The translations under genes were made by a program, and so were the position numbers. Positions 29,327-64,000 of a DNA stretch of 64,000 nucleotides are shown here, piece after piece. This DNA is from Minisyncoccia bacterium. Lineage in GTDB: Bacteria > Patescibacteriota > Minisyncoccia > UBA6257 > JAAZHW01. Every line of letters starts with the position of its first letter. Positions within the stretch are counted from its first letter, which is position 1. The stretch covers positions 8,003-72,002 of the forward strand of contig JBFEPE010000001.1 in the NCBI GenBank assembly GCA_041550235.1, in the 5' to 3' direction. The notes beneath the pieces were generated by a model, which was not told the DNA's origin, made no database searches, and worked only from the letters and a program-made list of their open reading frames with translations.

Positions 29327-29334
29327 TTAGCACA

Positions 29335-29365
29335 AATCCGTTCTAACTCAGAGCGGATTTTAATT
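29335..29365 (+). terminator. Hairpin terminator
   Basis: aatccgttctaactcagagcggatttt. Confidence 0.5.
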
Positions 29366-29400
29366 TATCTCTTGCCAATAAGAAATTTCGCCGTATAATA

Positions 29401-29592
29401 AAATCAATAATTTAATATGCCTAACCCCTATGATTATTCATAGGGTATGGCGATAAATCCATCCCTGTATTGAGCTCCTCGTTCAGCTTATCAGGGATGG
29501 TCATATTCGGAAACGGATATGGATGATCGCAAGATCGTCAGGTTGGCGGGGAGCTTTGTGTTCCAAGTCAACCACTAAAACCATCCCTAAAT
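29401..29592 (+). ncRNA. Candidate structured cis-regulatory RNA in the 5' leader of the 29593 membrane-protein gene
   Basis: Locally GC-richer. Hairpins ccctatga-ttat-tcataggg; ccatccctg...cagggatgg; tattcg-GAAA-cggata; gatc-GCAA-gatc; ggttg...caacc. A second ccatccc copy abuts the start codon. Confidence 0.4.
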
Positions 29593-30564: not shown

Positions 30565-30705
30565 ACCCCATTTGGCACCAAATTGGCACACGGAAAGGGA
30601 TGAGCCAAAAAACATAGGAATATACTCAAATCAAAGAAACAAGCCCAAAAATTGAAAATTTGCCCTCAAATTCGGCACTCCACAGATATATTTCATTGAT
30701 TTCTA

Positions 30706-30774
30706 CCTCAAGAAGAGTAGTATTAGGAATATATAATATCAGAGGATAATAAATCCCAATACTCTTCTTGAGAT
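30706..30774. promoter_or_regulatory. 18-bp inverted repeat upstream of the R-M operon (possible operator)
   Basis: ctcaagaagagtagtattagg ...30 nt... cccaatactcttcttgag. Confidence 0.35.
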
Positions 30775-30837
30775 AGGGATTAAATTTTTAACAAAATCAT
30801 TGATAAATAGTTAAAAATAAGCGATAATATAGATATT

Positions 30838-34672: not shown

Positions 34673-34681
34673 AGAATTAAA

Positions 34682-36124: not shown

Positions 36125-36152
36125 AATTCGGGGTGAGGGTTTTTGTAAAAAT

Positions 36153-37706: not shown

Positions 37707-37715
37707 ATAAAAACT

Positions 37716-38603: not shown

Positions 38604-38612
38604 TACGAAAAT

Positions 38613-39065
38613 ATGATAAAAATAAGAAACAAAAAAATTGAAGTTTTGGTTGCCTATACTACTCCCGAAATGTGGGATGCTGTTGAAGATACAAAAATAG
38701 CAGTTCAGGGCCAAAGTGCCAAAGACGCTGATTATTTTGCTTTTGCGAGAATGGGATTAAAAGAAAATAAAGGAAGAGCGATAATTACTCATATTGCCGA
38801 AATTGGCAAAACAAAATCAAATGTTCCAGTTGAAGAATATATTAAAAAATTTCCTAAATTATCAGAATACTTTAGAAAAAGAAATTGGAATGGTTTTAGT
38901 AAGGAATACTATTTAGAGAATATCCGAGAATTAAAAAATCCCATTTATCATAAAATAGGCGACAAAGCCAAGGGAAGAGTAAGATTTTATACAAATTTGA
39001 ATGAGTTAAAAAATGCTAATTTTATGAGGGATATTAAAACATTAAGTCAGTTAAATAAAAGATAA
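38613..39065 (+). CDS. Hypothetical protein (150 aa)
   Basis: Tightly linked within the operon (10-nt gap). No family recognised. Confidence 0.4.
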   Translation: MIKIRNKKIEVLVAYTTPEMWDAVEDTKIAVQGQSAKDADYFAFARMGLKENKGRAIITHIAEIGKTKSNVPVEEYIKKFPKLSEYFRKRNWNGFSKEYYLENIRELKNPIYHKIGDKAKGRVRFYTNLNELKNANFMRDIKTLSQLNKR

Positions 39066-39321
39066 AAATATGGTAGTTTATTATGGTCCGCCAGATATGA
39101 GCGGGATTGAAAAAGAAATAGAGAAATCAAATTCTTCATCTACTCGTTATAACAAGAAAATGCTTTGGGTGGCTGTGGCAACTTTGATTTTTACCATTAT
39201 CGCAGTGGCTATAAGTGCTTATTTAATACTTTGATTTTTTCAATAATTGGTTTAGAAATTTTATTGTTAGAATTTTTATTAAAGTTGAAAATCATAAAGA
39301 AATTAAAAAACATTAAAAACT

Positions 39322-41454: not shown

Positions 41455-41690
41455 TTATGCTATCAAAATAAGAAACAAAAAATTTTATCAAAAAGCATAT
41501 AGGGATAATTTTGATGAAGAAATTATTAGAAAAGAAATAGGCAAAACAGGTGTTAGAATAACCAATTTATTTGAGAGAGTTTTTGGCCTATTTAAATTAA
41601 AATAAATAGAATAGAATGGATTATTATTGAGAGAAAAGAATTAAAAAACTGATAATTGAAACCAGTTTTTAATACTCCGAAATTAAACCA

Positions 41691-42575
41691 TCAGTCATCA
41701 TCCACCAAATCAGTCTCAAAAATCGCATAAATCGGATAATGGTCTGAAATGTCTTCAATCAAATCTTGGTCCGTAATCCCGTATTCTTGGTCAAAGTAAA
41801 AGACACTGGCTGTATTGGTTGAGTATTCAGAGAAATAAGTGTCTGCCTTCATAACAATCCGGTCATAAGTCCAGTCGGTTTTAGTCATTGTATCCATATC
41901 ATTACTGATTACCCAGTAATGATTTATTGTTTTGAAGGGATTTGTTGTTGTATTTTCATCAAAATAACTTCCATCGGCATTAAAGTCTCCCATTACAATA
42001 ATATCTTTTTCATTGGGATTTTGAGAAAGAATATAATTATATACATCTTCTAAATGGGCTATTTCTCTGTTTGTATCATCGGGTTTAGTGTGAATCCCTG
42101 CTAATGTAAAATCAAAATCTCCACTTCTGAAAGAAGCAATATATGGTTCTCTCTCAAAAACATTTCTTATGTCATTATAGATATAATCAGAGCCAGTAAT
42201 AAAATTTACCTTGTCTGTATTATAGAAGTAAGCATAAGATTCTTTACTATTTGTTCTTCCTACCCCCTCGCTTTTTACAAAGGCATATTTATCAGAGCCA
42301 ATATCTTCATTTATCTTTTCTAAATAATAATCTGCTGTTTCTTCTTGGGCATCTCTTATTTCCTGAACCAACATAATATCAAATTCTTGAGCTATTTTAA
42401 CTAATTGCTCCATTACTTCGGGCTTATTTCTTTTTGTTTCCCCAAATATCTGAATGTTAAAAGCCCCCACCTTGATTGGACCGGGAAGAGTAGATTGACT
42501 TGTTCCAAAGAATACAAGAACTCCAGCCAAAATTGCTGGAATTATGATTTTTAATAATTTTTTGATATTAAACAT
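41691..42575 (-). CDS. Secreted/membrane-anchored endonuclease-exonuclease-phosphatase (DNase I-like) family nuclease
   Basis: N-terminal signal/TM. EEP motifs GAFNIQIFG, MLVQE, GIHTKP, GDFNA and SDHYP. Confidence 0.75.
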   Translation of the reverse strand: MFNIKKLLKIIIPAILAGVLVFFGTSQSTLPGPIKVGAFNIQIFGETKRNKPEVMEQLVKIAQEFDIMLVQEIRDAQEETADYYLEKINEDIGSDKYAFVKSEGVGRTNSKESYAYFYNTDKVNFITGSDYIYNDIRNVFEREPYIASFRSGDFDFTLAGIHTKPDDTNREIAHLEDVYNYILSQNPNEKDIIVMGDFNADGSYFDENTTTNPFKTINHYWVISNDMDTMTKTDWTYDRIVMKADTYFSEYSTNTASVFYFDQEYGITDQDLIEDISDHYPIYAIFETDLVDDD

Positions 42576-42581
42576 AACTTT

Positions 42582-42815
42582 TTAATGAATTCTATCTCTT
42601 GGTGGCATTGGATCTTTCCCATAACTATCTTTATCCTGTATTTTTCCATCTTTCCCGTGAATTATATGTTCTACTTCATCTTTTTTGGCTTGTTTAATGG
42701 ATGCTTTTATTGCCCGATCTTTTGTTGAATGAGAAGAAAGAGGGGTTTTTCTTCCTTCTTGGATTGTTCGCCACCCTCCATCCTTATATGTTGTGTGAAT
42801 GTTTTTCTTAGGCAT
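42582..42815 (-). CDS. Small hypothetical protein (DUF2188-like?)
   Basis: YKDGGWRTIQEG...AIKASIKQAKKD resembles small KGGW proteins. Weak. Confidence 0.35.
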   Translation of the reverse strand: MPKKNIHTTYKDGGWRTIQEGRKTPLSSHSTKDRAIKASIKQAKKDEVEHIIHGKDGKIQDKDSYGKDPMPPRDRIH

Positions 42816-42936
42816 AATTTTTATTTAATTAACGACCTTTGTAAAAATCCGAAAACTGAATTACTTCCGATTTTTATAAATCCTTGAATTAGATTTGCTT
42901 TTATTATATCAGAATTAGTGTTAAAGTTAAACCAAT

Positions 42937-43131
42937 ATGCTAACAGATAAAGAAATAGATGATTTTATTGAGTTATACAAGAAAAAATTTGGAAAAGAAA
43001 TTGGCAGAGAAGAGGCGATTAGAAAAGGGGCAAAATTAGTTCGGCTTGTAGAAGCTATTTTGAAACCTAAAGATAGTAATCCTAAAAAAGCGGAACATAT
43101 TATTGATGAAAGCCACAAAAAACCTATTTAA
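42937..43131 (+). CDS. Small hypothetical protein (64 aa), possible DNA-binding
   Basis: Helical, basic. Located upstream of the iteron-like repeats. Confidence 0.3.
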   Translation: MLTDKEIDDFIELYKKKFGKEIGREEAIRKGAKLVRLVEAILKPKDSNPKKAEHIIDESHKKPI

Positions 43132-43169
43132 TAAATGGGTTTTTGTTTATTTTTTATGATAAAAGTAAT

Positions 43170-43465
43170 AAAAAAATGCTGGCTACTACTGGCTACGCGA
43201 GGGGGTAATGACAAAAAATACTTAAATTTTTAAGTGATTGGGAAAACTTAATATCAAAACCTAAAAAAGCAAGTAAATAAAAGGTTTTTTCTATTTTTTA
43301 GGTCAAAATAATTATCAAAAAAATGATGGCTACTAATGGCTACAAGAAGGGATTATAAAATAAAAAATCTTGGAAAATCTTGGAAATTTGAGGGGGTATG
43401 ACAACATAGGTAGTGCTGTTTTTTTGTTTGCCCTATTGATTTTTTAGGGTAAAATAAGGTTATAA
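43170..43465. repeat. Two ~140-bp tandem units each with paired TGGCTAC iteron-like direct repeats spaced 10 bp
   Basis: tggctactactggctac (43180-43196) and tggctactaatggctac (43326-43342). Further shared blocks gggggta(a)tgacaa and tttt(t)agg(g)t(c/a)aaataa. Confidence 0.65.
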
Positions 43466-43480
43466 TTTTGTTAACAAAAA

Positions 43481-44308
43481 ATGAAAGATAATAAAGAAAA
43501 CAAAAAATCCTATTTAACTCAAGGAGATAAGAAATTATTGATATCTTTTAGAAGATTTTTGAAAAGAGAGCCAGTTTTATTAAAAATTCAAGATTTAAGA
43601 AAGAAATATGATATACCAAAAAATGGATTAAAAAAGAATGAAGTTTTTAAGCCAAATGAAGATGGATATCAAATCTATGTGGGAGATTTTGATTTTCCAA
43701 TCAGGATTGATTTTAATTCCGCCCTTAGAAAAGATATTAAAGAATATCTTCTTGAAGAATTTCCTGTAAAATCTAATTTTATTATACATCTAACGAAGAT
43801 GTTTATTTTGTATAACAACATTGATGATTATATAGATTTTGATAAATCCAAAGAAGAAGTTGATTTAGAATTATTTAACATATTTGATTTAGTTGATGAT
43901 ATGGAGATAGGTTATGATGTTATGAATGATCGTGATGCTGGGACTGGTCAAATTCACGGCTTTATTGAAGAAATAATGAATAGAGGAATGGAATATCCAA
44001 TTTCAATAGGAATACCAAACGGAGCCACTAAAAGGGATTTATTAGAATATATAAAGAAAAATTGGAATAAAATTGAAAAATTAAGAAATTCCAAAAAAGA
44101 AAATAAAAAATGGTTAGCCGTAAGAAAAAGTAATCCCGAGATTGAGAGAAGAGATGATTTTATTTATAAGCATAGAAAAAAATCATTAAAAGAAATAAAG
44201 GATTTAGTTATAGAAAAATTTGAAGGAAGTTTAGATGGCGATAGAAGGATTTTATATACTTGGCAAATTAAAAATATAATTGATAGAGAAAAGAAAAAAA
44301 GGAGCTAA
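43481..44308 (+). CDS. Hypothetical protein (275 aa) upstream of second integrase
   Basis: No family recognised. Lys-rich termini. Confidence 0.45.
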   Translation: MKDNKENKKSYLTQGDKKLLISFRRFLKREPVLLKIQDLRKKYDIPKNGLKKNEVFKPNEDGYQIYVGDFDFPIRIDFNSALRKDIKEYLLEEFPVKSNFIIHLTKMFILYNNIDDYIDFDKSKEEVDLELFNIFDLVDDMEIGYDVMNDRDAGTGQIHGFIEEIMNRGMEYPISIGIPNGATKRDLLEYIKKNWNKIEKLRNSKKENKKWLAVRKSNPEIERRDDFIYKHRKKSLKEIKDLVIEKFEGSLDGDRRILYTWQIKNIIDREKKKRS

Positions 44309-44417
44309 GTGTATCACACTTAGTTTTTAGTGCCATTTCGTTTTATTTCTTAAAATCTGGTTAATAATCAGATTTTTTTATTTTTCAAGAAATATCTGAT
44401 TTAAGATTTTAGGAAAT

Positions 44418-45344
44418 ATGAAAGATCTATTTGAACAATTTATAAAACAGCAAGAATATGTTGAAAGGAAAAGAAAAAAGACGATAGAAAATTATCGGCA
44501 GAATTTTAATTTATTGTTTGGCTTTAAGCCTGATTTGAAATTGGAAGATTTAACCGAAGAAACAATGATTGATTTCTTTGAGTATCTTGATACAAGGGAA
44601 AGAAGGGTCGGAAAGAAAATGATTGTTAGAAAAATTAAAAATTCCAGTATCGCCACAATAAGAGGAAAATTAGAGGTATTTTTTAGGTGGTTAGTTGATA
44701 GGGAGCATATCAAATCTAATCCATTTGAAAAAATACCATACCCGGAAGTTTCCTACACAAGCAAAGAGGCTTTCACGAAAGAGGAATTTGATAAAATTTT
44801 TATAAACATCGTTAGAGATATTAAATGGGTCAATGATTTTTTGCGAAAAAGAAACACAGCAATGATAATGACTTTAGTATTAACTGGGATAAGAAGAGAA
44901 GAGTTATTAGAATTAAAGCTGTCTGATATTGATTGGAAGAATAAAAAAATAACAATTAGAGATGAAACTTCTAAATCTAAAAGAACAAGAACTATTCCTA
45001 TGTCGCCAGATTTGAGGCCATTTTTAGAGGATTATTTAATAACCAGAACTAATAAGAAAAATAGTTTTCTTTGGGTCAATGGCAGAGATGAAAAATTTAC
45101 TGAACACGGCTGGAAGCATCTTGTTAAAAAACTAAAAGAAGAAACAGAAACTAATTTCCGCACCCATAGATTTAGACATACATTTGCTTGTAATTATTAT
45201 CGGCAGAGAAAAGATCCGGTTGGATTACAAAAAATGATGGGACATCAAGATATTAAAACTACTTTTAAGGTATATTTGCGATCCATAGATGATGATGATT
45301 TAACAAAAGAAATGAATAAATTTAAGATTTCTAAGTTTTATTAA
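44418..45344 (+). CDS. Tyrosine site-specific recombinase/integrase (second copy, divergent from 27749)
   Basis: HRFRHTFACNYYRQRKDPVGLQKMMGHQDIKTTFKVYL. N-terminal SAM-like core-binding domain. 308 aa. Confidence 0.9.
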   Translation: MKDLFEQFIKQQEYVERKRKKTIENYRQNFNLLFGFKPDLKLEDLTEETMIDFFEYLDTRERRVGKKMIVRKIKNSSIATIRGKLEVFFRWLVDREHIKSNPFEKIPYPEVSYTSKEAFTKEEFDKIFINIVRDIKWVNDFLRKRNTAMIMTLVLTGIRREELLELKLSDIDWKNKKITIRDETSKSKRTRTIPMSPDLRPFLEDYLITRTNKKNSFLWVNGRDEKFTEHGWKHLVKKLKEETETNFRTHRFRHTFACNYYRQRKDPVGLQKMMGHQDIKTTFKVYLRSIDDDDLTKEMNKFKISKFY

Positions 45345-45550
45345 AAATGGTCTTGCTAAAGTAAAATGTATCCGCTATTATTGAAGCATCTTAACAATTA
45401 AACAGCTTTTCTTTTTTGCTTTTTAGGGTCTTTTTTCCAAATGAGCGAAATTGGTAAATGGGTCGTGCTAAAAACCAAGTGTTTTGAGTGAAAATCCCCA
45501 TTTTATCAGGTTTTATCGGCATTTTTAGAGAAAAAGGGTGGAGCTGTTTA

Positions 45551-45592
45551 ATGGTAAGGAGTAGGTCAGCGGTTCAAGTCCGCTCATTGGCT
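45551..45592 (+). pseudogene. 3' half of the split tRNA-Thr(GGT) gene
   Basis: atggtaa-ggagt-aggtc-agcgg-ttcaagt-ccgct-cattggc-t. Complements the 5' half at 27457-27494 (gccaatg/cattggc, actcc/ggagt). Confidence 0.75.
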
Positions 45593-45599
45593 CTTTTAG

Positions 45600-45625
45600 A
45601 GAGATTGATTAAATCTCTTTTTTTG
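45600..45625 (+). terminator. Hairpin terminator after the tRNA 3' half
   Basis: agagattgattaaatctct + ttttttg. Confidence 0.45.
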
Positions 45626-45636
45626 TTTTTCTTTTA

Positions 45637-45716
45637 AAAATATGTTAAAATATATACATATTTAGAGGGCAAAAGCCCCTGCTCTGAATCTTTGGGGTAG
45701 GGGTTTTAATATAAAT
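45637..45716 (+). repeat. Copy 1 of a ~50-bp direct repeat plus hairpin cassette (second copy at 48282-48371; partial third at 36101-36152)
   Basis: aaaaatatgttaaaatatatacatatttagagggcaaaagcccctgctct...ggggtaggggtttt...atATG. Confidence 0.75.
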
Positions 45717-46928
45717 ATGAACAAAGATATATCTAAAATTTTTATACCAAAACTTACATATAATGAGTTATCTTTTGTTAAAGGGAAGGGGGTTCCAGCA
45801 ATAATAATGGATGCTTATTTAGTTGCTTATAGAAAAAAAGTTGCTGATAAAATCAGACAGGAAACAAGTTTGTTTATCATTGATCCTAATACCAATTATT
45901 TTGTTGATGATTATTGTAAGAAAAAACCTAGTTTTAAAAGTTTATCAACTACCCCAAAGAAACCATATAAAATAGATGAATTATTGACCGATGAAGGAGT
46001 TAGAAAATACGAAATGGTTTTAAATAATATTAGAAATCAGATAAATAACAATGCTGGATTAATAATATTGCCTTATTTATATATGGACAGCATAGATGAT
46101 GTTAAATTTAATTTAAATTTAACGATGATTAGTGATGGTTTGAGAGTTATAAAAGATAATAAAATAAAATACCCGACATATGCAATGATTAATATAGGTA
46201 ATAATATTTTTAATGATTATTCTAAAATAGATTTCTTAATAGGAAGATATTTTGTTGATTTCAAAAATGAATTAGACGGATATTTTGTAATGATAAACAA
46301 TTTTGATTGTCGCAGAGCTAGTAAAGAGGAGTTATTGGGATTAGCATATTTAACTTTTCGTTTATCAGGAAAAAAGGATCTTTATTTTTTGAAGATGGGA
46401 GATTATGGAGAAATTCTTTGTAGTATAGGTGCTACTGGTTATAGTAGTAGTTTGGCTGGAGGCGAAACTTTTAATGCAGACAATTTATCTAAGAAAAAAA
46501 TAGGAAAGATTTTTGGTAGGAATCATAAGGAAATAACTTATGTAGCTGAATTATTTATTTATCTAAATGATGAGATTTTAAAGAAGATAAAGTATTCTTG
46601 CGATTGTGAAGTTTGTAAAGGCAATATCCCAAGCAGCTGGAATGATACGAGGATGCATTTTCTCAATAGAAAATTAATGGCGATAGAGGAATTAAATAAG
46701 ATAGAAGATGGTGAAAAAATTAAATTTATGATTTCTAAAATAAATAATTCTATTGAACAAGTCGCTGAATATAATTCAAAATTTGCCCCCTTGTCAATTA
46801 AAGCAGATTTTCTTTTGAAATGGAAGCAAGTTTTAAAAGAAGTAATAAATTGGAAAGACGATGACTCAAAGAAAGTTGATACGATTGATTTAGATAAAAT
46901 TATAGAGGAGGCACGAAAATCTCAATGA
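45717..46928 (+). CDS. Hypothetical protein (403 aa) with tRNA-guanine-transglycosylase-like motifs
   Basis: VMINNFDCRR (cf. TGT catalytic xMFDCV) and SCDCEVCKG (CxCxxC zinc subdomain) followed by H 15 aa later. Otherwise unrecognised. Confidence 0.45.
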   Translation: MNKDISKIFIPKLTYNELSFVKGKGVPAIIMDAYLVAYRKKVADKIRQETSLFIIDPNTNYFVDDYCKKKPSFKSLSTTPKKPYKIDELLTDEGVRKYEMVLNNIRNQINNNAGLIILPYLYMDSIDDVKFNLNLTMISDGLRVIKDNKIKYPTYAMINIGNNIFNDYSKIDFLIGRYFVDFKNELDGYFVMINNFDCRRASKEELLGLAYLTFRLSGKKDLYFLKMGDYGEILCSIGATGYSSSLAGGETFNADNLSKKKIGKIFGRNHKEITYVAELFIYLNDEILKKIKYSCDCEVCKGNIPSSWNDTRMHFLNRKLMAIEELNKIEDGEKIKFMISKINNSIEQVAEYNSKFAPLSIKADFLLKWKQVLKEVINWKDDDSKKVDTIDLDKIIEEARKSQ

Positions 46929-47371
46929 ATATAGTCCCCGATACTAATTTGTTATTAAAGGGATTATTGTTTAGGGGTGATGCTAGACAAATAATCAATT
47001 TAGCTTATTCAAAAAAAATAAACCTTTATGGGAGTAAGGGCTCTTTTGAGGAGATAAAGAGAGTCGTTTATTATAAAAATTTTAAAAAATATCTTGAAAA
47101 AGAAATTTATACGCCAGAGAAATTAATTGTTTCTTATAGATCATTAATTAATATAGCTACAATAAACAAAAATTATAAAGATTTGAAAGTTGTAAAAGAT
47201 GATCCAGACGATGATGAATTCTTAAAAATAGCAAAGACAATAGAATCGCAGATCATAATATCTAGCGATAAGCATTTAAGAAGAATCGAAAAATATGATG
47301 ATATCAGAATAATAGAGCCAGAGATTTTTATTAAAATTTACCCTAAAATATTAGGCAGAAAATTCATTTAA
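46925..47371 (+). CDS. PIN-domain nuclease
   Basis: MNIVPDTNLLL (first acidic residue), DDPDDDEFL, ISSDKHL. Start overlaps the upstream gene (ATGA). Confidence 0.7.
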   Translation: MNIVPDTNLLLKGLLFRGDARQIINLAYSKKINLYGSKGSFEEIKRVVYYKNFKKYLEKEIYTPEKLIVSYRSLINIATINKNYKDLKVVKDDPDDDEFLKIAKTIESQIIISSDKHLRRIEKYDDIRIIEPEIFIKIYPKILGRKFI

Positions 47372-48022
47372 TATTTTTTTGTTTAATATTGATTCAGCCG
47401 CTAAATTAAATTTATATTTGTTTAGTGCTTTTTTTGGTTTAAGATTTGTGATCTCAAGTCCTTTATTTTCAAGATTTAATATTATTAATCCAATTTCATG
47501 TTTTTCTAACAATTTCTTATCTATAAGGTGTTCCTGAGATGATGGCATAGCTAAATATACTTTATTAGCAAATGATTTATATCTATTGGCTTGAAGTATG
47601 CCTCTTTTCCAGTTTTTTAGTTTAGCTTCTATAGCAATTATCTCCTTAGCAATGGGCATCCACCCATTTATTTTATAATAATATTGATCGTCAATTATTT
47701 TAATGAAATTATCATCTTGTAGTTTTTTTAAATATTTATACTTCAGTGTATTTCTTGATATTTTTAATCTATTGATAATAAATTCTATATCCACCTTTTT
47801 TCTTTTTCCCATTTCTGGCAAAAGATCAAATATTCTAAAATAATCTTCATTTTCGATTGATTTATATTGTTTATGATTCTTTCTTATTAAACAATTATTA
47901 GAGTCGAGCTTAAATAACACTAAATCAGCTATACCATAACCAACCCCAACTTCCCTTTTGGTTAGATAGCCATTTTTAGACAACTCTTTTTCTAGCAAGG
48001 AGACAAAATATTTTTCTGTCAT
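47351..48022 (-). CDS. PD-(D/E)XK nuclease-family protein (Mrr/Hjc-like core)
   Basis: GYGIADLVLF...IAIEAKLKNWKRGILQANRY shows a D / E-x-K / Q-x-x-R-Y arrangement. 223 aa. Confidence 0.5.
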   Translation of the reverse strand: MTEKYFVSLLEKELSKNGYLTKREVGVGYGIADLVLFKLDSNNCLIRKNHKQYKSIENEDYFRIFDLLPEMGKRKKVDIEFIINRLKISRNTLKYKYLKKLQDDNFIKIIDDQYYYKINGWMPIAKEIIAIEAKLKNWKRGILQANRYKSFANKVYLAMPSSQEHLIDKKLLEKHEIGLIILNLENKGLEITNLKPKKALNKYKFNLAAESILNKKILNEFSA

Positions 48023-54402: not shown

Positions 54403-54693
54403 ATGGCTGATGTAACAGGTGGTATAGTTTTTAGGAAAGAAGGAATATCTGCTTGGCAACCCGATGGTAATATTCTTTCTGGAGGATCTTATCCTCGCCT
54501 TTCGCTGTCAGAAATTCTTATAGAGATTATAGATGGAACGGGTGAATATGCTCTTAGAAAGATTATTGAATCTGACGAGGGCAGGGTATTTTTAAGGAAA
54601 TTAGGATATGATCTTGTTTTTGAGGATGATGATAGTCCCCAAGATGATTATGATATTGATAGAGAAGCAGAAATTGATGCTTGTTATAGATAA
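54403..54693 (+). CDS. Hypothetical small acidic protein (96 aa)
   Basis: Strong SD aaggaggtgtaatATG. Terminator-like hairpin at about 54700-54750. Confidence 0.5.
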   Translation: MADVTGGIVFRKEGISAWQPDGNILSGGSYPRLSLSEILIEIIDGTGEYALRKIIESDEGRVFLRKLGYDLVFEDDDSPQDDYDIDREAEIDACYR

Positions 54694-54769
54694 AAGTGTT
54701 GATTAAGCAAAAGGGGCGGTTGGATCAATCCAGCCGTCTTTTTTTAGGAAACTATGGGTGACGGGAGGC

Positions 54770-54845
54770 AGAGATTCCCCGCCATAGGCGGGCAGGCCGC
54801 CGGAGTATTATCCGCCTCAGGCGGACGGGAATGACAGGGGAGATA
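54770..54845. repeat. GC-hairpin repeats
   Basis: ccccgccataggcgggcaggccgccggagtattatccgcctcaggcggacggg. Confidence 0.7.
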
Positions 54846-55079
54846 ATTTTTCTATTTCGTAATTCAAGGTTTATCGTGAAATAAATCCCCAATAATATTA
54901 TTTGACAATTATTTTTTTAGTAGTAATATAGAAAAGTGTTTAGTAGAAAGGCGAAACAATCTATGAGTTGATATAGAGTGGTATTAATATCATCTCTCTT
55001 GCTGATTTTGTCGGCGAAAAGGGATGTAAATCAGTCGTTTTATTAATCTTTTATTTTTAAATAAAATAATAAAAATCTT

Positions 55080-55955
55080 ATGATTTTACCAAAAAAACCA
55101 AAAGTTGTTGAAGAAAAAGACAACTTCGCAATATTTGAAATAGAGGGATTATATCCCGGATATGGTCTCACATTAGGCAATGCATTAAGAAGAGTGCTCT
55201 TATCCTCATTGGAAGGTGCAGCCATCACAAGTGTTCAAATCAAGGGAGTGAGCCATGAATTTTCCACTATTGATGGAGTGATGGAGGATGTTGTTCAAAT
55301 CATTCTCAATCTAAAAAAGATTAGAGTCTCTCTTTTTTCTAACGAACCACAAAAAATAACATTATCCGCTAAGGGCGAAAAAGTTATTACAGCAAAAGAT
55401 ATAAAAGAAAACTCCAATGTAGAAATTTTAAATAAGGATGCTCATATTGCCACATTATCAAGTAAAAAATCATCATTGGAAATGACAATGGTTGTAGAAA
55501 GAGGATTAGGATATTCTCCTTCTGGGACAAGAAGCGAGGAGAAATTATCAGTTGGGAACATTAGTTTGGATGCCCTTTTCTCTCCGGTTATGAAGGTAAA
55601 TTATGAAGTGAAAGATATGAGGGTAGGCGATAGAACTGATTATAATAAATTAAGATTATATATTGAAACTGATGGATCTCTCACTCCAAAATTAGCTCTA
55701 AAAAAGTCAGTTAATATTTTATTGGGTCATTTGAAGGTGGTAGGCGATTTAGGAATTGATGATGATGGAGAATTATCTTCTCCTGATGATGAAGACAAAA
55801 ACAAGGATGAGGAAAATGAGACAAAGAGGCATGACTTTTTGATTTATGATGGCGAGGAACCAGCAGGTGAAGGCAGGGGTTCTGACGATGATTATTTTCC
55901 AGCCAAGGAAAAAGAATCATCAAAAAAGAGTAAGGGCAAGAGTAAGAAAAAATAA
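55080..55955 (+). CDS. rpoA: DNA-directed RNA polymerase alpha subunit, lacking a recognisable C-terminal domain
   Basis: N-terminal domain motifs (FEIEGLYPGYGLTLGNALRRVLLSS...). 291 aa. The last ~65 aa are an acidic/Lys-rich low-complexity tail with no helix-hairpin-helix alpha-CTD. Confidence 0.8.
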   Translation: MILPKKPKVVEEKDNFAIFEIEGLYPGYGLTLGNALRRVLLSSLEGAAITSVQIKGVSHEFSTIDGVMEDVVQIILNLKKIRVSLFSNEPQKITLSAKGEKVITAKDIKENSNVEILNKDAHIATLSSKKSSLEMTMVVERGLGYSPSGTRSEEKLSVGNISLDALFSPVMKVNYEVKDMRVGDRTDYNKLRLYIETDGSLTPKLALKKSVNILLGHLKVVGDLGIDDDGELSSPDDEDKNKDEENETKRHDFLIYDGEEPAGEGRGSDDDYFPAKEKESSKKSKGKSKKK

Positions 55956-55964
55956 TCAAATATT

Positions 55965-56318
55965 ATGAAAAATTTAAAGACTGGACGAAAATTTAATAGA
56001 AAAAAAGGACAAAGAAGATCATTCTTAAGGCAGATGATGGCTAACTTGATATTGAATAAGAGAATAGAGACAACGGAGGCAAGGGCAAAAGAAATAAGAC
56101 AGAAATTAGAGAAAGAAATCACTCTTGCAAAAAAACAAAATTTAGCAAGTTTGAGATTATTAATAAGTCGATTAGGGGAGAAGCCGGCATTTGAACTTCA
56201 AAAGAATGTTGCTCCTAAGTTTGAGAATAGAAATGGCGGTTATTTGAGAATTATAAAAAGTCCTGTTTTGACAAAAAGAGATGGAAGCAAAAAGGCCGTT
56301 ATTGAGTTCGTTGAGTAG
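55965..56318 (+). CDS. rplQ: 50S ribosomal protein L17
   Basis: KTGRKFNRKKGQRRSFLRQMMANLI...GGYLRIIK. Confidence 0.9.
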   Translation: MKNLKTGRKFNRKKGQRRSFLRQMMANLILNKRIETTEARAKEIRQKLEKEITLAKKQNLASLRLLISRLGEKPAFELQKNVAPKFENRNGGYLRIIKSPVLTKRDGSKKAVIEFVE

Positions 56319-56358
56319 TACCCGCCTTCGTCAAGACTTCGGCGGGCGAAGAAAAAAT

Positions 56359-56709
56359 ATGAGGGAGATAAAGATTGATGCAGAAAATAAAATAATTGGG
56401 AGATTGGCAACAAGGATTGCTGTTCTTTTGTGTGGCAAGGATTTGCCATCATACAACCCAAGATTAGAAGGAGATACGAAGGTTATTATTGAAAATATAA
56501 AGAAGGCAAAATTTTCTGGAAATAAATTTGAAAAAAAATTATATAGAAGACATACTGGATACATTGGTCATTTAAAAGAATTCACGGCTAAACAAGTTTT
56601 TGAAAAAGATCCAAGAGTATTATTGCAAAAAGCAGTAATGGGGATGTTGCCTAAAAATAAGTTGAGGGCGAGGAGAATAAAAAATTTAGTTTTTTTGAAG
56701 TCAAATTAA
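56359..56709 (+). CDS. rplM: 50S ribosomal protein L13 (listed ORF begins 56281; ATG at 56359)
   Basis: MREIKIDAENKIIGRLATRIAVLL. Preceded by hairpin ...cttcggcgggcgaagaaaaaatATG. Confidence 0.9.
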   Translation: MREIKIDAENKIIGRLATRIAVLLCGKDLPSYNPRLEGDTKVIIENIKKAKFSGNKFEKKLYRRHTGYIGHLKEFTAKQVFEKDPRVLLQKAVMGMLPKNKLRARRIKNLVFLKSN

Positions 56710-56783
56710 GAAACCCGCCTTCGTCAACCCACCTTCGCTAAAGCTACGGCAGGGCAGGGGACTTCGGCGGGCGAAGAAAAAAT

Positions 56784-57251
56784 ATGGAAAAAAAATCTAC
56801 ATCTACAAAAAAAACTGATACTACAAAAAAAGTTGTTAAAAAAAGTGGGTCAGTGGCAAAAAAAGAAAAATACTATGAGGCGGTAGGAAGAAGGAAAACT
56901 TCTACGGCGAGGGTTCGTTTATTTACAAAAAAGAAGGGATTTACAATAAATGATAAGGAGTATAAGGAATATTTTCCAATTCTTAGGCTTCAGAAAAAAG
57001 TCAATATTCCTTTTGATAAGATGAATATTGAGGATAAGTTTGGTGTCTCTGTTAAGGTTGTCGGGGGAGGAATTAATTCCCAATCCGATGCTATTAAGTT
57101 GGGAATTAGTAGGGCATTAGTAAAATTTAACCAGGATTTTAAGAAAAGACTTCGACGGGTTGGGCTTCTCACTCGTGATGCAAGGGAGGTGGAGAGAAAG
57201 AAGCCAGGGCTTCGCAAGGCCCGAACTGCCCATCAATGGAGTAAGAGGTAG
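56784..57251 (+). CDS. rpsI: 30S ribosomal protein S9 with Lys-rich N-terminal extension
   Basis: C-terminal GLLTRDAREVERKKPGLRKARTAHQWSKR. Confidence 0.9.
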   Translation: MEKKSTSTKKTDTTKKVVKKSGSVAKKEKYYEAVGRRKTSTARVRLFTKKKGFTINDKEYKEYFPILRLQKKVNIPFDKMNIEDKFGVSVKVVGGGINSQSDAIKLGISRALVKFNQDFKKRLRRVGLLTRDAREVERKKPGLRKARTAHQWSKR

Positions 57252-57305: not shown

Positions 57306-58598
57306 ATGAAAAAAATATTATTGTTCCTCGTTGTCGTTTCTTTAATTATTCCCTTTGTCCCCGCCAATGCGGAGGATAATGTCATTAATGATGAGAATAT
57401 TATTAATCTGATTGTTGGTGAGGAGAAAAAGATATCTGATGATATTTCTTTAAAATTGATCAAACTAATGGAAGTAGAAGGCAATGCTTTGTGTACAAAA
57501 ACTAATCTGGAACCTTGTCTCAGCTATATAGAGATAAAAATGGGTAATATGTCAAAATCTACCGTAATAACTATGGAAAATTTTTATCCGATATCAAGTT
57601 TTTATCCGACAATCTCTTCTGATTTTAAAATAGGTCTGATTGGAAAAAAAGATTATCAAACCGGAATTTTTGAAATACAAAAAGAAGGATTAATATCTAG
57701 TGTATCCGAGTTAGAACAAGAAATAACACCTTCTTCGCCCAAACCTATTTTAGAAAGTGATATTTCTGAGCCAATTTCTTATCAAACTATTAAGCCTCAA
57801 ATTGGAATAAAGGAATCAATAACAATATCATCTGATCAAATATCAATTTATAACGAAGAAAAAGAAACAGAAACAATATATAATGCTCCAACTTCGGTTG
57901 AAGAGACAAAAACAGCAATAAAAATAGAGGTTGGTGATATAGAATCGGGAAAAAGAGAAATTAATATCAAGCCAGTTAGAGATAAATTAATTTTAGAAAT
58001 GGTAAAAGGAGCGACTAATGAGGATTGCGAGATGTATTCATCTGAGTGCAAAAAGGGGGATGAGATTCTTTGCCAAAAATATGATTTTAATTGCTCTAAT
58101 TTAGAAAAACAAACTTGTGAAAATTATCTCTTGTCTTGTAAAAAAGGCAATGAAGATGCTTGTGTTAAATGGGATTTAAATTGCAAGCAGAAAGAAGTAA
58201 CCCCAGAATTTTGTGGTAAAATTTTATCTCTTTGCCAAGATGGGCTCATAGAGAGATGCAAGGAATATAATGTTTCTTGCCAACAGAAAGAAATTGTTTC
58301 TGTTTCCACCAAAGAAGTTCTTAATATTAAGGAAAATAAAATATTTATGAATGAAAAAGAGATTAAGGTGATGCCGGACACAGCTAGTGAAAGTGCTATT
58401 GATAAATTATCTCTCAATAAAGATGTTGAAATAGAATTGAAAGATACTGGCAAGCCAGTTTATGAGGTGATTGGCTCCCAAGAAAAAAGAATTTTAGGTC
58501 TTTTCAAGACAGCAGTAAAAGTAACAACAACTCTTAGTGCAGAAACAGGAGAAATTGAGAAAACAAAGAAGCCATGGTGGAGTTTCTTGGCATGGTAA
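57306..58598 (+). CDS. Secreted Cys-rich hypothetical protein (430 aa)
   Basis: Signal peptide MKKILLFLVVVSLIIPFVPANA. About 14 Cys in a repetitive CxxC/CxxxC block. Confidence 0.5.
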   Translation: MKKILLFLVVVSLIIPFVPANAEDNVINDENIINLIVGEEKKISDDISLKLIKLMEVEGNALCTKTNLEPCLSYIEIKMGNMSKSTVITMENFYPISSFYPTISSDFKIGLIGKKDYQTGIFEIQKEGLISSVSELEQEITPSSPKPILESDISEPISYQTIKPQIGIKESITISSDQISIYNEEKETETIYNAPTSVEETKTAIKIEVGDIESGKREINIKPVRDKLILEMVKGATNEDCEMYSSECKKGDEILCQKYDFNCSNLEKQTCENYLLSCKKGNEDACVKWDLNCKQKEVTPEFCGKILSLCQDGLIERCKEYNVSCQQKEIVSVSTKEVLNIKENKIFMNEKEIKVMPDTASESAIDKLSLNKDVEIELKDTGKPVYEVIGSQEKRILGLFKTAVKVTTTLSAETGEIEKTKKPWWSFLAW

Positions 58599-58859
58599 GA
58601 TATCTATTGACAAAAAATAAAATATGATTATAATGAGGGGACTTTTTGATTTTTTGACAAAATAATTAATTTGTCCCCTTATTAGGGCTGATAATCGCCC
58701 CAATTATCTTGTGATTTTAAATAAAAATAAGATAAATTAATAAAAGATTAATTTTAGAACCCATTGCTTTTTGCGGGTTGTTTTTGTTCTCATTTTTTAT
58801 TTTATTGCTTGAGGCTGTGGATAAGTGAAATAGAAGGTAAGAACAAGTATAACTGCGAT

Positions 58860-59060
58860 TAGGAATAGGCGAGCATGATGCTTCCTGTCACCCCTGCGAA
58901 GGCAAGGGTCTAAATAAATGGCAAGTGAGTGGTAATAGTGAGGTTGAGATTCCCGCCTTCGCGGGAATGACAAAGAAGAAATAGGAATGACAAAGGAGAG
59001 AGGATGACGCCCCCTCCTGTCGCCTCCGCGAAGGCGGAGGTCTAAAGAAAAGAAAGTAAG
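58860..59060. repeat. GC-hairpin repeat array
   Basis: cacccctgcgaaggcaagggtc, cccgccttcgcgggaatgacaa and cgcctccgcgaaggcggaggtc. Confidence 0.7.
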
Positions 59061-59193
59061 GACTGAATTAAAAATTGAATATAATCTATTTTAGGATTTG
59101 ATTGAGGTAAGGTGGAATAATAAAAAACGGAGGTGGCAATTATCAATTTATTAATTGCCATTTATCCTCCAAGGTTGCCTGTTGTTGATATCA

Positions 59194-59490
59194 CTAATTT
59201 TTAATTTTAAATTCGATTAATAATCCTTTTAGACTATCCTCATCAATTTTAGCAAATCTTAACTCGTCAGATTCAAGGTATTTCAAATGCAAACGAAGAT
59301 TCAAAACATTAGTTGAGCAAGAATCAGTTTTAAAGCTCACAAGAGATAATCCCTCACAAGATTTTCCATAAACAAGAAATGGCACCCATCCATTTATGAA
59401 TTTGCGACTATGATTAATTGCAATAACTATATCACCATCTTCTAAATTCTCTAGTTTCTTAAAATATTTGTCTTCTACTTCTATTGTCAT
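59194..59490 (-). CDS. Hypothetical protein (98 aa) inserted between rpsI and rpoB
   Basis: Preceded on the minus strand by TTGACA-N15-TATAAT and SD aggagg. No family recognised. Confidence 0.45.
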   Translation of the reverse strand: MTIEVEDKYFKKLENLEDGDIVIAINHSRKFINGWVPFLVYGKSCEGLSLVSFKTDSCSTNVLNLRLHLKYLESDELRFAKIDEDSLKGLLIEFKIKN

Positions 59491-59536
59491 GCCTACCTCC
59501 TGAAATCAGATTATAATAGAGAAATTGTTTTGTCAA
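59491..59536 (-). promoter_or_regulatory. Promoter/RBS cassette (TTGACA-N15-TATAAT-ctgatttcaggaggt-ATG), copy 1
   Basis: Reverse complement of 59491-59536. Near-identical copy at 63677-63722. Confidence 0.55.
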
Positions 59537-59539
59537 TGG

Positions 59540-59823
59540 GGAGATTCCCGCCTTCGCGGGAATGACAAAGAAGAATGGAATAAAAATAAATCAAATAATC
59601 CCTCCCCCCGCCTTCGGCGGGGGGAGGGGATAAGGAAGAAACAGGAACGACACCTCTCCCGTGTCACCCCCGCGAAGGCGGGGGTCTAAAAACCAAGGGA
59701 AACACGATGAGAATTGTTGAGATGCCTGCCTCCGCAGGCATGACAATAAAATATTTAAATAATACCCGCCTTCGTTAAAATAGAATATCCGCCTCTGGCG
59801 GACTATGGCGGGCGAAGAAAAAT
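59540..59823. repeat. GC-hairpin repeat array ending at the rpoB start
   Basis: cccgccttcgcgggaatgacaa, ccccccgccttcggcggggggagggg, cacccccgcgaaggcgggggtc, gcctgcctccgcaggcatgac and ...ctatggcgggcgaagaaaaatATG. Confidence 0.75.
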
Positions 59824-62800
59824 ATGGCTAAAAAAATAAAAGTTTTCTCAAGTGAGCCGGATGTGTTGGAGGGATTAAAGAATTTGCCTAATCTTTGCGA
59901 AATCCAATTAAACTCATATAACTGGCTCATAAAAAAAGGGTTTAAGGATTTATTTAAGGAAGTTTTTCCAATAAGTGATTATACCGGCAATGAATTAGAA
60001 ATAGATTTTGATGGTTATTTCTTAGACCAGCCAAAATTTGACGAGATCTCATCAAAAGAAAAACGACTCACTTATGAAGCACCCTTGAGAGTCAATTTCA
60101 AATTAACAGACAAGAAAAGCAAAAGAGAAACAAAGCAAGAAGTATATTTTGGAGACTTTCCTGTCATGACAGACAGGGGAACTTTTATTATAAACGGAGT
60201 AGAACGAGTTGTAATTTCTCAAATTGTTCGCTCCAGTGGATTATATTTCACAGCCGAGATGTTAAAAGGAAGGAAGCATTTTGGTGCAAAAATAATTCCT
60301 GATAGAGGAGCATGGTTGGAATTTTCAACTGGCTTGGATAGAGCAATTTATGTTAAGATTGACAAAAAAAGAAAAATCGCCGTTTCGGCATTATTGAGAA
60401 TATTTGGATTAGATTCAGATGAGAAAATATTAGAGGCATTTAAGGGGACGGATATTGGGGAAGTAAGTTTTATAGAAAAGACGATTAAAAAAGATGCATC
60501 AAAAAATGAAGAAGAGGCATTTATGGAAATTTATAGAAGAATTAGGCCAGGTGATTTAGCCACACCAGAGAGTGCAAAAAGTTTAGTTGAGGCAATGTTT
60601 AAGAGAGATGACAGATATGATTTGAGTGATGTTGGAAGATATAAATTAAATCAAAGATTGGGGATGGGCGATAAAAATAATAGTAGGCAATTGACAATAG
60701 AAGACTTAATTGAAGTTGTTAAAATAATAATAGAATCAAATAATGATAGAACAAAAGAGCCAGACGATATTGATCATTTAGGAAATCGTCGTGTGAGGGC
60801 AGTTGGAGAAGTTTTGCTTTCGCGGATAAGGGTTGGGCTTATGAGATTAAGAAGGGTAGTTCAGGATAGAATGTCTACTTATGATAGGGAAACATTGATG
60901 CCAACTCAATTAATAAATATCAGAACTGTTATGGCGGTCGTTGATGAGTTTTTCAATACCTCTCAATTATCGCAATTTATGAATCAAGAAAATCCATTGT
61001 CCGAGTTAGAGCATAAAAGGAGAATGTCTGCAACAGGTCCGGGTGGATTAAATAGAAAGAGGGCTGGGTTTGAAGTGAGAGATGTTCATCGCACTCACTA
61101 TGGAAGGATTTGTCCAATTCAAACACCAGAAGGAGCAAATGTGGGATTAGTGAGTCATTTGTCTTGTTTTAGCCGTCTCAATGATTTTGGATTTATAGAA
61201 ACACCTTATTTTAAAGTTGAAAATGGAGTAATAACAAAAAAATTAGAATATTTAAATGCTTGGGAGGAGGAAAATTATTATATCGCATCAGCGGGATTTA
61301 AAAAAGATAAAAATAATAAAATAACGGGAAAAGAAGTTGGGGGAAGATATAAGGGAATTCCAGGCTTCTACCCAACTTCAAAAATTCAATTCTCAGATGT
61401 TTCACCATTTCAAATATTTAGTATTGCTACTGGACTTGTTCCATTTGTTGATCACAATGATGCCAACCGTGCTTTGATGGGATCAAATATGCAAAGGCAA
61501 GCTGTCTCTTATGTTTTGTCTCAAGCCCCATTAGTTGGAACGGGTATGGAGGAAAAGGCAGCTGTTGATTCAGGGCAGACATTGGTAAGTAAAGATGCGG
61601 GCGAAGTAACAGAAGTAGATGCTAACCATGTAAAAATAAAAAATAAAAATGGCAAATTAAAATTATATAATCTCCATAATTTTAAGAGAACAAACCAAGA
61701 TACTTGTTTATCTCAAAGGCCAATTGTTAAGGTTGGGCAGAAAGTTAAAGAGGGGCAGGTTTTGGCTGATAGTTTGATGACTGATAATGGAGCATTGGCA
61801 TTAGGACAAAATCTTTTGGTGGCCTTCTTGTCATGGGGTGGTTCTAACTATGAGGATGCTATTGTTTTGTCTGAGAGAGTAGTTCAAGAGGATAGATTTA
61901 CATCAATGCATATTGAGGATTTTTATTGTGATGTGAGGGATACAAAACTTGGTCCGGAATTAACAACATTAGATATTCCAAATGTATCCCTTGAAAGATT
62001 AAAGAATTTGGATGAGGAGGGGATTGTGAGAGTAGGAGCAGAAGTTGGCTCTGGTGACATTTTAGTTGGAAAAATTTCTCCAAAAGGAGAGACTGATTTA
62101 ACGGCTGAGGAGAGATTATTGAGGGCAATATTCGGAGAAAAGGCAAGAGATGTTAAGGATACATCTCTCACTATGAAGCACGGAAAGAGGGGAAGAATAG
62201 TTGGGATAAGAATATTTTCTCGAGAAAATGGAGATAAATTAGAGCCGGGCATAATCAAAAGAATTCAAATTCAAGTTGCTCAAATGAGAAGAGTTTTGGC
62301 TGGGGATAAGTTGGCTGGAAGGCATGGAAACAAAGGAATTATTTCAAAAATTGTCCCAGTAGAGGATATGCCATATATGGAAGACGGGACTCCGGTGGAT
62401 ATTATTCTTAATCCACTGGGTGTTATTTCAAGAATGAATTTAGGGCAGATATTAGAAACTCATTTGGGATTAGCTGCTTCAAAGTTGGGTTATCGTGCAG
62501 TTACCCCTGTTTTTGCTGGTGCGACTGAGGATGAGATACGAAAAGAATTGAAAACGGCTGGTTTTCCAGAAGATGGAAAGGTGGTCCTTTATGATGGGCA
62601 AACAGGAAGGGCATTTGATCAAAGAGTTGTTGTTGGTTATCAATATATGTTGAAGTTGAATCATATGGTTGAGACAAAAATTCATATGAGGTCTATTGGT
62701 CCATATTCTCTAATTACACAGCAACCATTAGGCGGAAAGGCTCAATTAGGAGGACAGAGATTTGGAGAGATGGAAGTATGGGCATTGCAAGGATATGGAG

Positions 62801-63081
62801 CGGCTTATGCTTTGCAAGAAATGCTCACTGTAAAATCAGATGATGTGATGGGAAGGGTTTCTGCTTATGAGGCGATTGTCCGAGGGCAAAAGTTTAGCCC
62901 ACCAAATATTCCAACTTCATTTGATGTATTGATAAATGAGTTGAAGAGTATGGGGTTGAATGTTGAACTTATTGGTGGAACGAAAAAGTTTTTTGATGAT
63001 GATAAGGGAGCGAGAGGTGAGGTAAATGAGATAAGGGGAGAGGCATCAGAAGCATTTTCAGAAGACTCCGAAAGAGAGTAG
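59824..63081 (+). CDS. rpoB: DNA-directed RNA polymerase beta subunit
   Basis: Conserved blocks throughout (GTFIINGVERVVISQ, HRTHYGRICPIQTPEG, NMQRQAV, GGQRFGEMEVWAL). 1085 aa. Confidence 0.95.
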   Translation: MAKKIKVFSSEPDVLEGLKNLPNLCEIQLNSYNWLIKKGFKDLFKEVFPISDYTGNELEIDFDGYFLDQPKFDEISSKEKRLTYEAPLRVNFKLTDKKSKRETKQEVYFGDFPVMTDRGTFIINGVERVVISQIVRSSGLYFTAEMLKGRKHFGAKIIPDRGAWLEFSTGLDRAIYVKIDKKRKIAVSALLRIFGLDSDEKILEAFKGTDIGEVSFIEKTIKKDASKNEEEAFMEIYRRIRPGDLATPESAKSLVEAMFKRDDRYDLSDVGRYKLNQRLGMGDKNNSRQLTIEDLIEVVKIIIESNNDRTKEPDDIDHLGNRRVRAVGEVLLSRIRVGLMRLRRVVQDRMSTYDRETLMPTQLINIRTVMAVVDEFFNTSQLSQFMNQENPLSELEHKRRMSATGPGGLNRKRAGFEVRDVHRTHYGRICPIQTPEGANVGLVSHLSCFSRLNDFGFIETPYFKVENGVITKKLEYLNAWEEENYYIASAGFKKDKNNKITGKEVGGRYKGIPGFYPTSKIQFSDVSPFQIFSIATGLVPFVDHNDANRALMGSNMQRQAVSYVLSQAPLVGTGMEEKAAVDSGQTLVSKDAGEVTEVDANHVKIKNKNGKLKLYNLHNFKRTNQDTCLSQRPIVKVGQKVKEGQVLADSLMTDNGALALGQNLLVAFLSWGGSNYEDAIVLSERVVQEDRFTSMHIEDFYCDVRDTKLGPELTTLDIPNVSLERLKNLDEEGIVRVGAEVGSGDILVGKISPKGETDLTAEERLLRAIFGEKARDVKDTSLTMKHGKRGRIVGIRIFSRENGDKLEPGIIKRIQIQVAQMRRVLAGDKLAGRHGNKGIISKIVPVEDMPYMEDGTPVDIILNPLGVISRMNLGQILETHLGLAASKLGYRAVTPVFAGATEDEIRKELKTAGFPEDGKVVLYDGQTGRAFDQRVVVGYQYMLKLNHMVETKIHMRSIGPYSLITQQPLGGKAQLGGQRFGEMEVWALQGYGAAYALQEMLTVKSDDVMGRVSAYEAIVRGQKFSPPNIPTSFDVLINELKSMGLNVELIGGTKKFFDDDKGARGEVNEIRGEASEAFSEDSERE

Positions 63082-63202
63082 TTATTCTTTAAAAATTAAA
63101 AATCAGATTTCAGGATTTTTTCAGGAGTGGGTTGGTGGGGAAATAAAAAAGGGCAGAGGTTGCTTTTTCTCAAAGCAACATGCCCGGTGAATACGAGATT
63201 AT

Positions 63203-63676
63203 TTAATTTAAAAAATTAAAAGATATTTCGATCTCGGATACCTCTGATAATTCCAATTTGGTGAGACCACTAAAGAAATTGATTAAGGCCAAAGATGGTC
63301 TTTCACATTCATGTCCCAATTTGATTTGTCTTTTCCAAAACCTTCTCTTCTCTAATACCTCTTCAATATGATAGATGTTGTGATAGACCTTATGCTCAGT
63401 TCTTTCAATGACCTTGAGAACTCTTTTCAGATGACCGCCTTCGGGAAATGTGATAATTAACCCCTTATGCATTTTTTCTTTATTAACCATTTGCCTGTAC
63501 TTAATCATTTTTTCGTAGTCGCATAAATATTGAACGATGCAATAAATTGGAATTTCATTATAAGATGAAACAAGGTCGGCTGTTTTTGCCTCAACTAGTT
63601 CATAAAACACGGCACCATTTTCATCAGGCTCCATCTTCCTTAGTTCAAGATTAAGAAATTCTTCTTTTTTACCCAT
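63203..63676 (-). CDS. Hypothetical protein (157 aa) inserted between rpoB and rpoC
   Basis: Same promoter/RBS cassette as 59194..59490. No family recognised. Confidence 0.45.
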   Translation of the reverse strand: MGKKEEFLNLELRKMEPDENGAVFYELVEAKTADLVSSYNEIPIYCIVQYLCDYEKMIKYRQMVNKEKMHKGLIITFPEGGHLKRVLKVIERTEHKVYHNIYHIEEVLEKRRFWKRQIKLGHECERPSLALINFFSGLTKLELSEVSEIEISFNFLN

Positions 63677-63722
63677 TGAAACCTCCTGAAATTAGATTAT
63701 AATAAATAAATTATTTTGTCAA
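63677..63722 (-). promoter_or_regulatory. Promoter/RBS cassette, copy 2 (TTGACA-N15-TATAAT-ctaatttcaggaggt-ATG)
   Basis: Reverse complement of 63677-63722. Confidence 0.55.
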
Positions 63723-63729
63723 TAATATA

Positions 63730-64000
<271 letters not shown>

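Follow-up and report, generated by a model that had tools for sequence, protein, structure and literature searches.

[quoted passage not shown] After the intact N-terminal domain (NTD) there is only a 69-residue tail, predicted to be disordered, that turns from acidic to Lys-rich. Bacterial RNA polymerases are commonly assumed to possess an alpha-CTD throughout; this domain recognises UP elements at strong promoters, those of rRNA among them, and docks class I activators. Here, the domain is absent from the gene, from the window and from the rpoA neighbourhoods of relatives, and the CTD-less form is spread clade-wide. Comparison of related proteins indicates repeated loss, and codon comparison shows that the tail is under purifying selection. 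Thus, the original prediction, in which a charged low-complexity tail follows an intact NTD and the alpha-CTD is missing, holds when examined with Pfam, a lineage-specific HMM and AlphaFold2.

The rpoA Gene and Its N-Terminal Domain

55080..55955, plus strand: rpoA, ATG start, 291 codons and stop; RNA polymerase alpha subunit without C-terminal domain
55080..55745, plus strand: alpha N-terminal domain (residues 1–222), dimerisation and beta/beta' assembly platform; PF01193 and PF01000

The translated open reading frame corresponds exactly to the predicted protein of 291 amino acids ending in ...SKKSKGKSKKK. In Pfam, PF01000 matched residues 52–168 with the model covered in full (E 2.9e-31) and PF01193 matched residues 26–217 (E 5.8e-21). 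Two NCBIfam rpoA equivalogs scored above their cut-offs (TIGR02027, 254.0 versus 227.8; NF003519, 283.2 versus 277), and the protein was under the cut-offs of the remaining six rpoA sub-models. These equivalogs align over the first ~230–250 of 298–344 model positions only, corresponding to the N-terminal ~75%. The best solved RpoA chain was that of B. subtilis (6wvj_A, E 1.7e-57), and the alignments to solved chains in the PDB all end at query residue ~220–240. An AlphaFold2 model calculated from a 101-sequence alignment exhibited a pLDDT >90 across almost all of residues 1–222. All 19 invariant columns of the 101-sequence RpoA alignment are present in the NTD. Judged by these sequence features, the NTD looks fully functional, and assembly into alpha2-beta-beta' is predicted.

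Canonical bacterial RpoA, represented by the B. subtilis (6wvj_A) and E. coli (4ljz_A) proteins, shares with the window protein the NTD and the gene order rpoA-rplQ. In contrast, it carries a ~70-residue helix-hairpin-helix alpha-CTD (PF03118) in place of the disordered charged tail predicted here. Archaeal RpoD and eukaryotic Rpb3 are homologous assembly-platform subunits that, like the window protein, naturally have no alpha-CTD. The corresponding model NF001988 gave a weak match (E 2e-7; 30.9 versus a cut-off of 153). This score is far under the cut-off. By its NTD, its equivalog scores and its gene context, the window protein is clearly an RpoA of the bacterial type and not an archaeal RpoD.

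Absence of the alpha-CTD from the Protein

55746..55952, plus strand: 69-residue tail (residues 223–291), predicted to be disordered, replacing linker and alpha-CTD; HMM, Pfam and AlphaFold2
55758..55820, plus strand: acidic tail segment (residues 227–247), DDDGELSSPDDEDKNKDEENE; read from the sequence
55797..55907, plus strand: lineage-specific central tail segment (residues 240–276), KNKDEENETKRHDFLIYDGEEPAGEGRGSDDDYFPAK; identical in three known variants
55905..55952, plus strand: Lys-rich C-terminus (residues 276–291), KEKESSKKSKGKSKKK; read from the sequence

A diverged alpha-CTD might be concealed within this tail, whose 69 residues roughly match an alpha-CTD in length and include a conserved segment that contains aromatics (FLIYDG, DDDYFP). 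However, sensitive HMMs found no alpha-CTD in the protein. The RNA_pol_A_CTD profile (PF03118), suggested along with the original prediction as a check, was absent from the window RpoA even at E ≤ 10, and the tail alone (residues 223–291) gave zero Pfam matches at this threshold. For a second alpha-CTD HMM, the last 85 residues of each of 57 CTD-bearing patescibacterial RpoAs were used. This HMM recovered 57 of 57 CTD-bearing relatives, which is not an independent control because the same 57 sequences were used to build it. It matched none of 63 short homologues. On the tail it scored ~0 bits, aligned solely to low-complexity linker columns. The AlphaFold2 model contained no helix past residue 222; residues 231–291 formed neither helix nor strand at a pLDDT of 44–59, and the tail is predicted from this model to be disordered. 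The tails of the closest relatives comprise just 24–49 amino acids and are too short to hold the domain. We therefore consider a concealed alpha-CTD extremely improbable.

Integrity of the Reading Frame

55965..56318, plus strand: rplQ (ribosomal protein L17), PF01196, E 4e-25; start 9 nt past the rpoA stop

A frameshift, a sequencing error or a misassembly could have cut short a normal rpoA of ~320 amino acids. No evidence for such an artefact was found, apart from the low complexity of the tail and the A-rich DNA of its Lys-rich end, a region with small in-frame indels between strains. Several observations argue against an artefact. A frameshift or sequencing error near position 55750, named with the original prediction as a possible source of error, is excluded: the frame is open to 55955, rplQ follows at 55965, and no frame of the window contains an alpha-CTD. 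Because rplQ starts 9 nt past the stop codon, there is no space for CTD-coding DNA after rpoA. An identical 291-residue RpoA is present on an independently assembled Logan contig. A species-representative scan yielded the Paceibacteria MAG contig JBFFCO010000011.1 (L002), which has 95–96% nucleotide identity to the window and encodes an RpoA of 289 residues (P0280) with the same layout. A third variant of 297 residues (P0279), from the 90% cluster of the window protein, likewise has this layout. The three proteins differ by in-frame substitutions and small indels, and the 95–97% identical variants from other MAGs thus retain frame and layout. Furthermore, rplQ starts 2–88 nt (median 24) past the rpoA stop in 61 further CTD-less loci, which leaves no pseudogenised CTD remnants there. 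An artefact is exceedingly unlikely.

Search for a Separately Encoded alpha-CTD

A trans-acting alpha-CTD might be encoded elsewhere, either alone or as part of a second, CTD-bearing alpha subunit as in Francisella. Two different alpha subunits do occur in some bacteria (Francisella; PDB 6wmp; PMC3294249), and the searched part of this genome amounts to 64 kb. The search for a separate alpha-CTD-like reading frame, which the original prediction had called for, was nevertheless negative in the 64-kb window and in related loci totalling 882 kb. With the lineage HMM, no alpha-CTD match was obtained in any of the six frames of the window (best E 1.7). In 83 related loci comprising the 882 kb, matches of this HMM were confined to full-length rpoA genes, so that a separate CTD gene beside rpoA in relatives is rejected for the neighbourhood only. 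Some 650 kb around rpoA (within about 6 kb) in more than 60 CTD-less relatives held no CTD-like sequence. Within the window, ORF96 (54403–54693, 96 codons), located just 5' of rpoA, was considered as a separate CTD. Its stretch GTGEYALRKI appears faintly helix-hairpin-helix-like by eye; the HMM score was −1.2 bits and there was no Pfam match, and the candidate was rejected. We know of no precedent for a free CTD untethered from its NTD. From the window and the related loci searched, an alpha-CTD supplied in trans appears improbable.

Distribution of CTD-Less RpoA and Repeated Loss

About 60 of the nearest homologues have the same CTD-less layout. All of the closest ~24 are CTD-less; the source labels are Candidatus Paceibacterota, Colwellbacteria and Patescibacteria. 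The best 120 clusters at 90% identity exhibited a bimodal length distribution, with proteins of 250–291 residues without PF03118 (63 of 120) and proteins of 305–356 residues with PF03118. About 60 of 80 species-representative genome loci were CTD-less, many Moranbacteria among them. The complete genome CP175956.1 encodes a CTD-less RpoA of 236 residues. At 50% identity, 95 of the best 150 representatives had a CTD and 50 had a complete NTD without CTD; about 10 of these 50 possess Arg/Ala/Pro-rich tails resembling frameshifted high-G+C genes and were not counted as real.

In an NJ tree of 192 NTD sequences the inferred root was CTD-bearing. The window protein (P0001) and L002 fell into a clade of 52 sequences, all of them CTD-less, and further pure CTD-less clades comprised 49, 8, 8 and 3 sequences. 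The full data require a minimum of 8 changes of the CTD state, and 100 of 100 NJ bootstraps gave 6 or more. Since regain of the domain is implausible, these changes are read as losses, and the tree indicates that the CTD was lost repeatedly within the Patescibacteria. The number of independent losses is approximate because it derives from a single-domain NJ tree.

Three RpoA-containing proteins were unusually long, namely P0121 (569 residues), P0122 (526 residues) and P0176 (664 residues), with two matched stretches each. They could represent tandem alpha subunits, fusions with neighbouring genes or gene-calling artefacts.

Composition and Selection of the Tail

The tails of CTD-less RpoAs comprise 11–72 residues (median 38) and are typically acidic and then Lys-rich. 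In CTD-bearing relatives the linkers, too, are charged and of low complexity, often in the order acidic-basic-acidic. The tail is therefore best read as a retained linker, and would be derived from the segment that once joined the two domains.

Accepting that the CTD was truly lost, the tail may still be a functionless remnant of this linker, its composition a mere consequence of A+T-rich codon bias. Lys-rich ends are indeed favoured by A+T-rich coding sequence, and the resemblance to the charged linkers of CTD-bearing relatives speaks for such a remnant. The tails cannot be aligned between clades, and their dN exceeds that of the NTD by a factor of 3–10. The CTD-less subclade to which the complete genome CP175956.1 belongs is nearly tail-less, with a purely acidic stretch of 11–27 residues and no basic patch. 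Consequently, the basic patch is not obligatory.

Against a functionless remnant stands the pattern of substitutions. Between the window and L002 the dN/dS ratio (Nei-Gojobori) was 0.010/0.096 = 0.10 for the NTD and 0.036/0.346 = 0.10 for the tail, the latter calculated from 16 differing codons only (11 synonymous and 5 nonsynonymous differences). Among the other unsaturated pairs the tail dN/dS was mostly 0.1–0.5 and thus <1; many Moranbacteria pairs were saturated (dS undefined) and left out of the calculation. The central 37 residues of the tail are unchanged in the window protein, P0279 and P0280/L002, and all substitutions and indels flank this segment. These codon comparisons show purifying selection on the tail of the window lineage.

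The distribution of basic residues also argues against a remnant shaped by composition. At least 5 Lys or Arg residues in the best 8-residue window were found in 112 of 122 CTD-less tails versus 13 of 70 linkers of CTD-bearing relatives. Lys and Arg accounted for ≥50% of the 12 C-terminal residues in 74 of 120 CTD-less RpoAs; such ends were far less common in other reading frames of the same genomes (2 of 44 in the window and 73 of 943 in related loci). A basic patch of this kind occurs in 5 of 7 pure CTD-less clades. Moreover, four divergent CTD-less 50% clusters from Patescibacteria/Parcubacteria MAGs (P0146, P0181, P0231 and P0256) end in KKRGRPKK after an acidic spacer, whereas this motif was found in 0 of 163 linkers of CTD-bearing relatives. 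On balance, a tail without function is a serious possibility, but we regard it as somewhat doubtful.

Binding to the minor groove of A+T-rich DNA is common to the alpha-CTD and AT-hooks, and this makes the KKRGRPKK ends suggestive. These ends resemble AT-hooks and Lys-rich minor-groove tails such as those of the histone-H1 type; the window tail likewise has a Lys-rich patch at its end. Two of the four clusters matched the AT-hook model PF02178 with 13.1 and 12.5 bits, under the cut-off of 17.4. The window protein gave no match to PF02178 and its tail contains no GRP core of the AT-hook; its DNA binding is putative. Proceeding from a genuine loss of the alpha-CTD, the tail may have been kept because its basic end makes nonspecific electrostatic contact with upstream DNA. 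A more far-reaching proposal, which we advance tentatively and consider rather unlikely, is that the Lys-rich ends are a minimal replacement of the alpha-CTD that evolved repeatedly. A flexible acidic spacer would then present a basic patch to the A+T-rich minor groove upstream of −35, and in some lineages this end would have become the canonical AT-hook-like KKRGRPKK. Through such tails, small-genome bacteria would obtain a UP-like contact that is sequence-unspecific and needs no folded domain. In the window lineage, the invariant tail segment KRHDFLIYDGEEPAGEGRGSDDDYFPAK would serve as an additional short motif for binding a partner.

Comparison with Known CTD-Less Alpha Subunits

A 2021 paper states in one sentence and without data that Parcubacteria lack the alpha-CTD, and lists naturally CTD-less alpha subunits also for Hodgkinia, Tremblaya and Euglena chloroplasts (PMC8321222). 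In these cases, as in the window RpoA, the NTD was kept and the CTD lost in a reduced genome, and the Parcubacteria belong to the same lineage. The main text of the source cited there for Parcubacteria (PMC4508563) mentions neither RNA polymerase nor alpha, and no other description of a CTD-less Parcubacteria alpha subunit was found in the literature searched. Because the loss in Parcubacteria was already stated (PMC8321222), the window RpoA is real but not a new kind of protein. The repeated loss, the charge-patterned tail under selection and the AT-hook-like ends appear to be undocumented detail in the literature searched.

The architecture of the window protein is equivalent to that of the engineered E. 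coli alpha(1–235) and of the truncated B. subtilis RpoA-del (PMC4495994). Such truncated alpha subunits assemble into polymerase and give basal transcription, and the alpha-CTD is required for the contacts to UP elements and class I activators (PMC8321222, PMC4495994). In B. subtilis the truncation doubled the doubling time and lowered the expression of genes for ribosome synthesis and carbon sources (PMC4495994). These truncations are laboratory forms, whereas the CTD-less form of the window is natural and has a charged tail that is conserved.

Transcription initiation in this Paceibacteria organism would accordingly proceed without contacts of a folded alpha domain to DNA or activators. [quoted passage not shown] Promoter strength would be set by the elements contacted by sigma, and the prediction follows that these hexamers alone determine it and that regulation proceeds without alpha-dependent activators. 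Loss of the CTD is in line with the limited set of regulators in these genomes; the CRP/FNR family, for instance, is absent from the candidate phyla radiation (CPR) (PMC12531629). The scarcity of transcription factors and the altered promoter architecture expected in the original prediction would be reasonable corollaries. The large and repeatedly arisen set of natural CTD-less polymerases in Patescibacteria means that bacteria can dispense with the alpha-CTD. Should the conserved basic or AT-hook-like tails contact upstream DNA, they would constitute a new, minimal way of performing the task of the alpha-CTD and would also be a useful component in the engineering of small polymerases.

Promoters and Gene Neighbourhood of rpoA

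54902..54929, plus strand: candidate sigma-70-like rpoA promoter, TTGACA-16 nt-TAATAT; 10/12 in a consensus scan, ~150 nt before the start codon

The block 54901–55047, which holds this candidate promoter, is 96% identical in L002. A perfect sigma-70 consensus (TTGACA-17 nt-TATAAT) is located at 14588–14617, right after an FKBP gene and ~400 nt upstream of the 23S rRNA gene. Anecdotally, this agrees with promoter strength being set by sigma.

Relatives have the order infA-rpsM-rpsK-rpsD-rpoA-rplQ-rplM-rpsI, in one case with rpoB-rpoC directly next. Upstream of rpoA, L002 contains three open reading frames of the size of S13, S11 and S4. The homology between the window (54700–55080) and L002 (1–1876) ends at 54901, and upstream of rpoA the window carries ORF96 and then rpmH-rnpA-yidD-yidC on the opposite strand. 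Thus, rpoA has been separated from the leading genes of the alpha operon (rpsM-rpsK-rpsD); the rplQ side of its position was kept and the upstream half of the linkage lost. In the same window rpoB extends from 59824 to 63081, and the start of rpoC lies near 63871.

A G+C-rich element, (CCCGCCTTCGTCAAG)ACTTCGGCGGGCGAAGAAAAAATATG, was observed at 56321–56361, 56746–56786, 59781–59826 and 63833–63873, and also at 11955–11975. It lies directly 5' of, and overlaps, the start codons of rplM, rpsI, rpoB and rpoC; the true ATG of rplM is probably at 56359. Four matches with ≤3 mismatches were obtained versus 0 expected by chance. The leader of rpoA consists of A and T only and is without the element. 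Folding of the element was no better than that of shuffled sequence, and no structure is therefore claimed for it.

The region between rpsI and rpoB (57306–59823) contains an open reading frame of 430 codons with a hydrophobic N-terminus, a Cys-rich middle and no Pfam match, and a field of G+C-rich hairpin repeats at 58886–59690. In the relative L083 rpoB directly follows rpsI, and the homologous region of L002 holds two longer reading frames for 564 and 582 amino acids. The gap between rpoB and rpoC (63082–63870) measures ~790 nt; it is 5 nt in L083. It contains a minus-strand reading frame for 157 amino acids (63203–63676, no Pfam match) and a tandem 60-nt repeat (63732–63832).

Other Features of the Window

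The match to 23S rRNA at 15016–19428 is 4413 nt long versus a model of 2925 nt, corresponding to insertions of ~1.5 kb. Since the insertions include an open reading frame for a GIY-YIG endonuclease (17409–17756), this suggests an intron with a homing endonuclease in the 23S rRNA gene. The 5S rRNA (region 19754–20375) is parted from the 23S rRNA by an ASCH-domain reading frame, and there is no adjacent 16S gene.

At 27651–47400 a tRNA-Thr gene is followed by an integrase and an island of low G+C content (24–30%). This island contains a LOOT RNA (29418–29539), an N6-methylase/Eco57I-like protein, a KAP NTPase, a UvrD-like helicase, a GmrSD-Schlafen protein, a second integrase and a PIN-domain protein. 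It probably represents a defence or mobile island that became integrated here.
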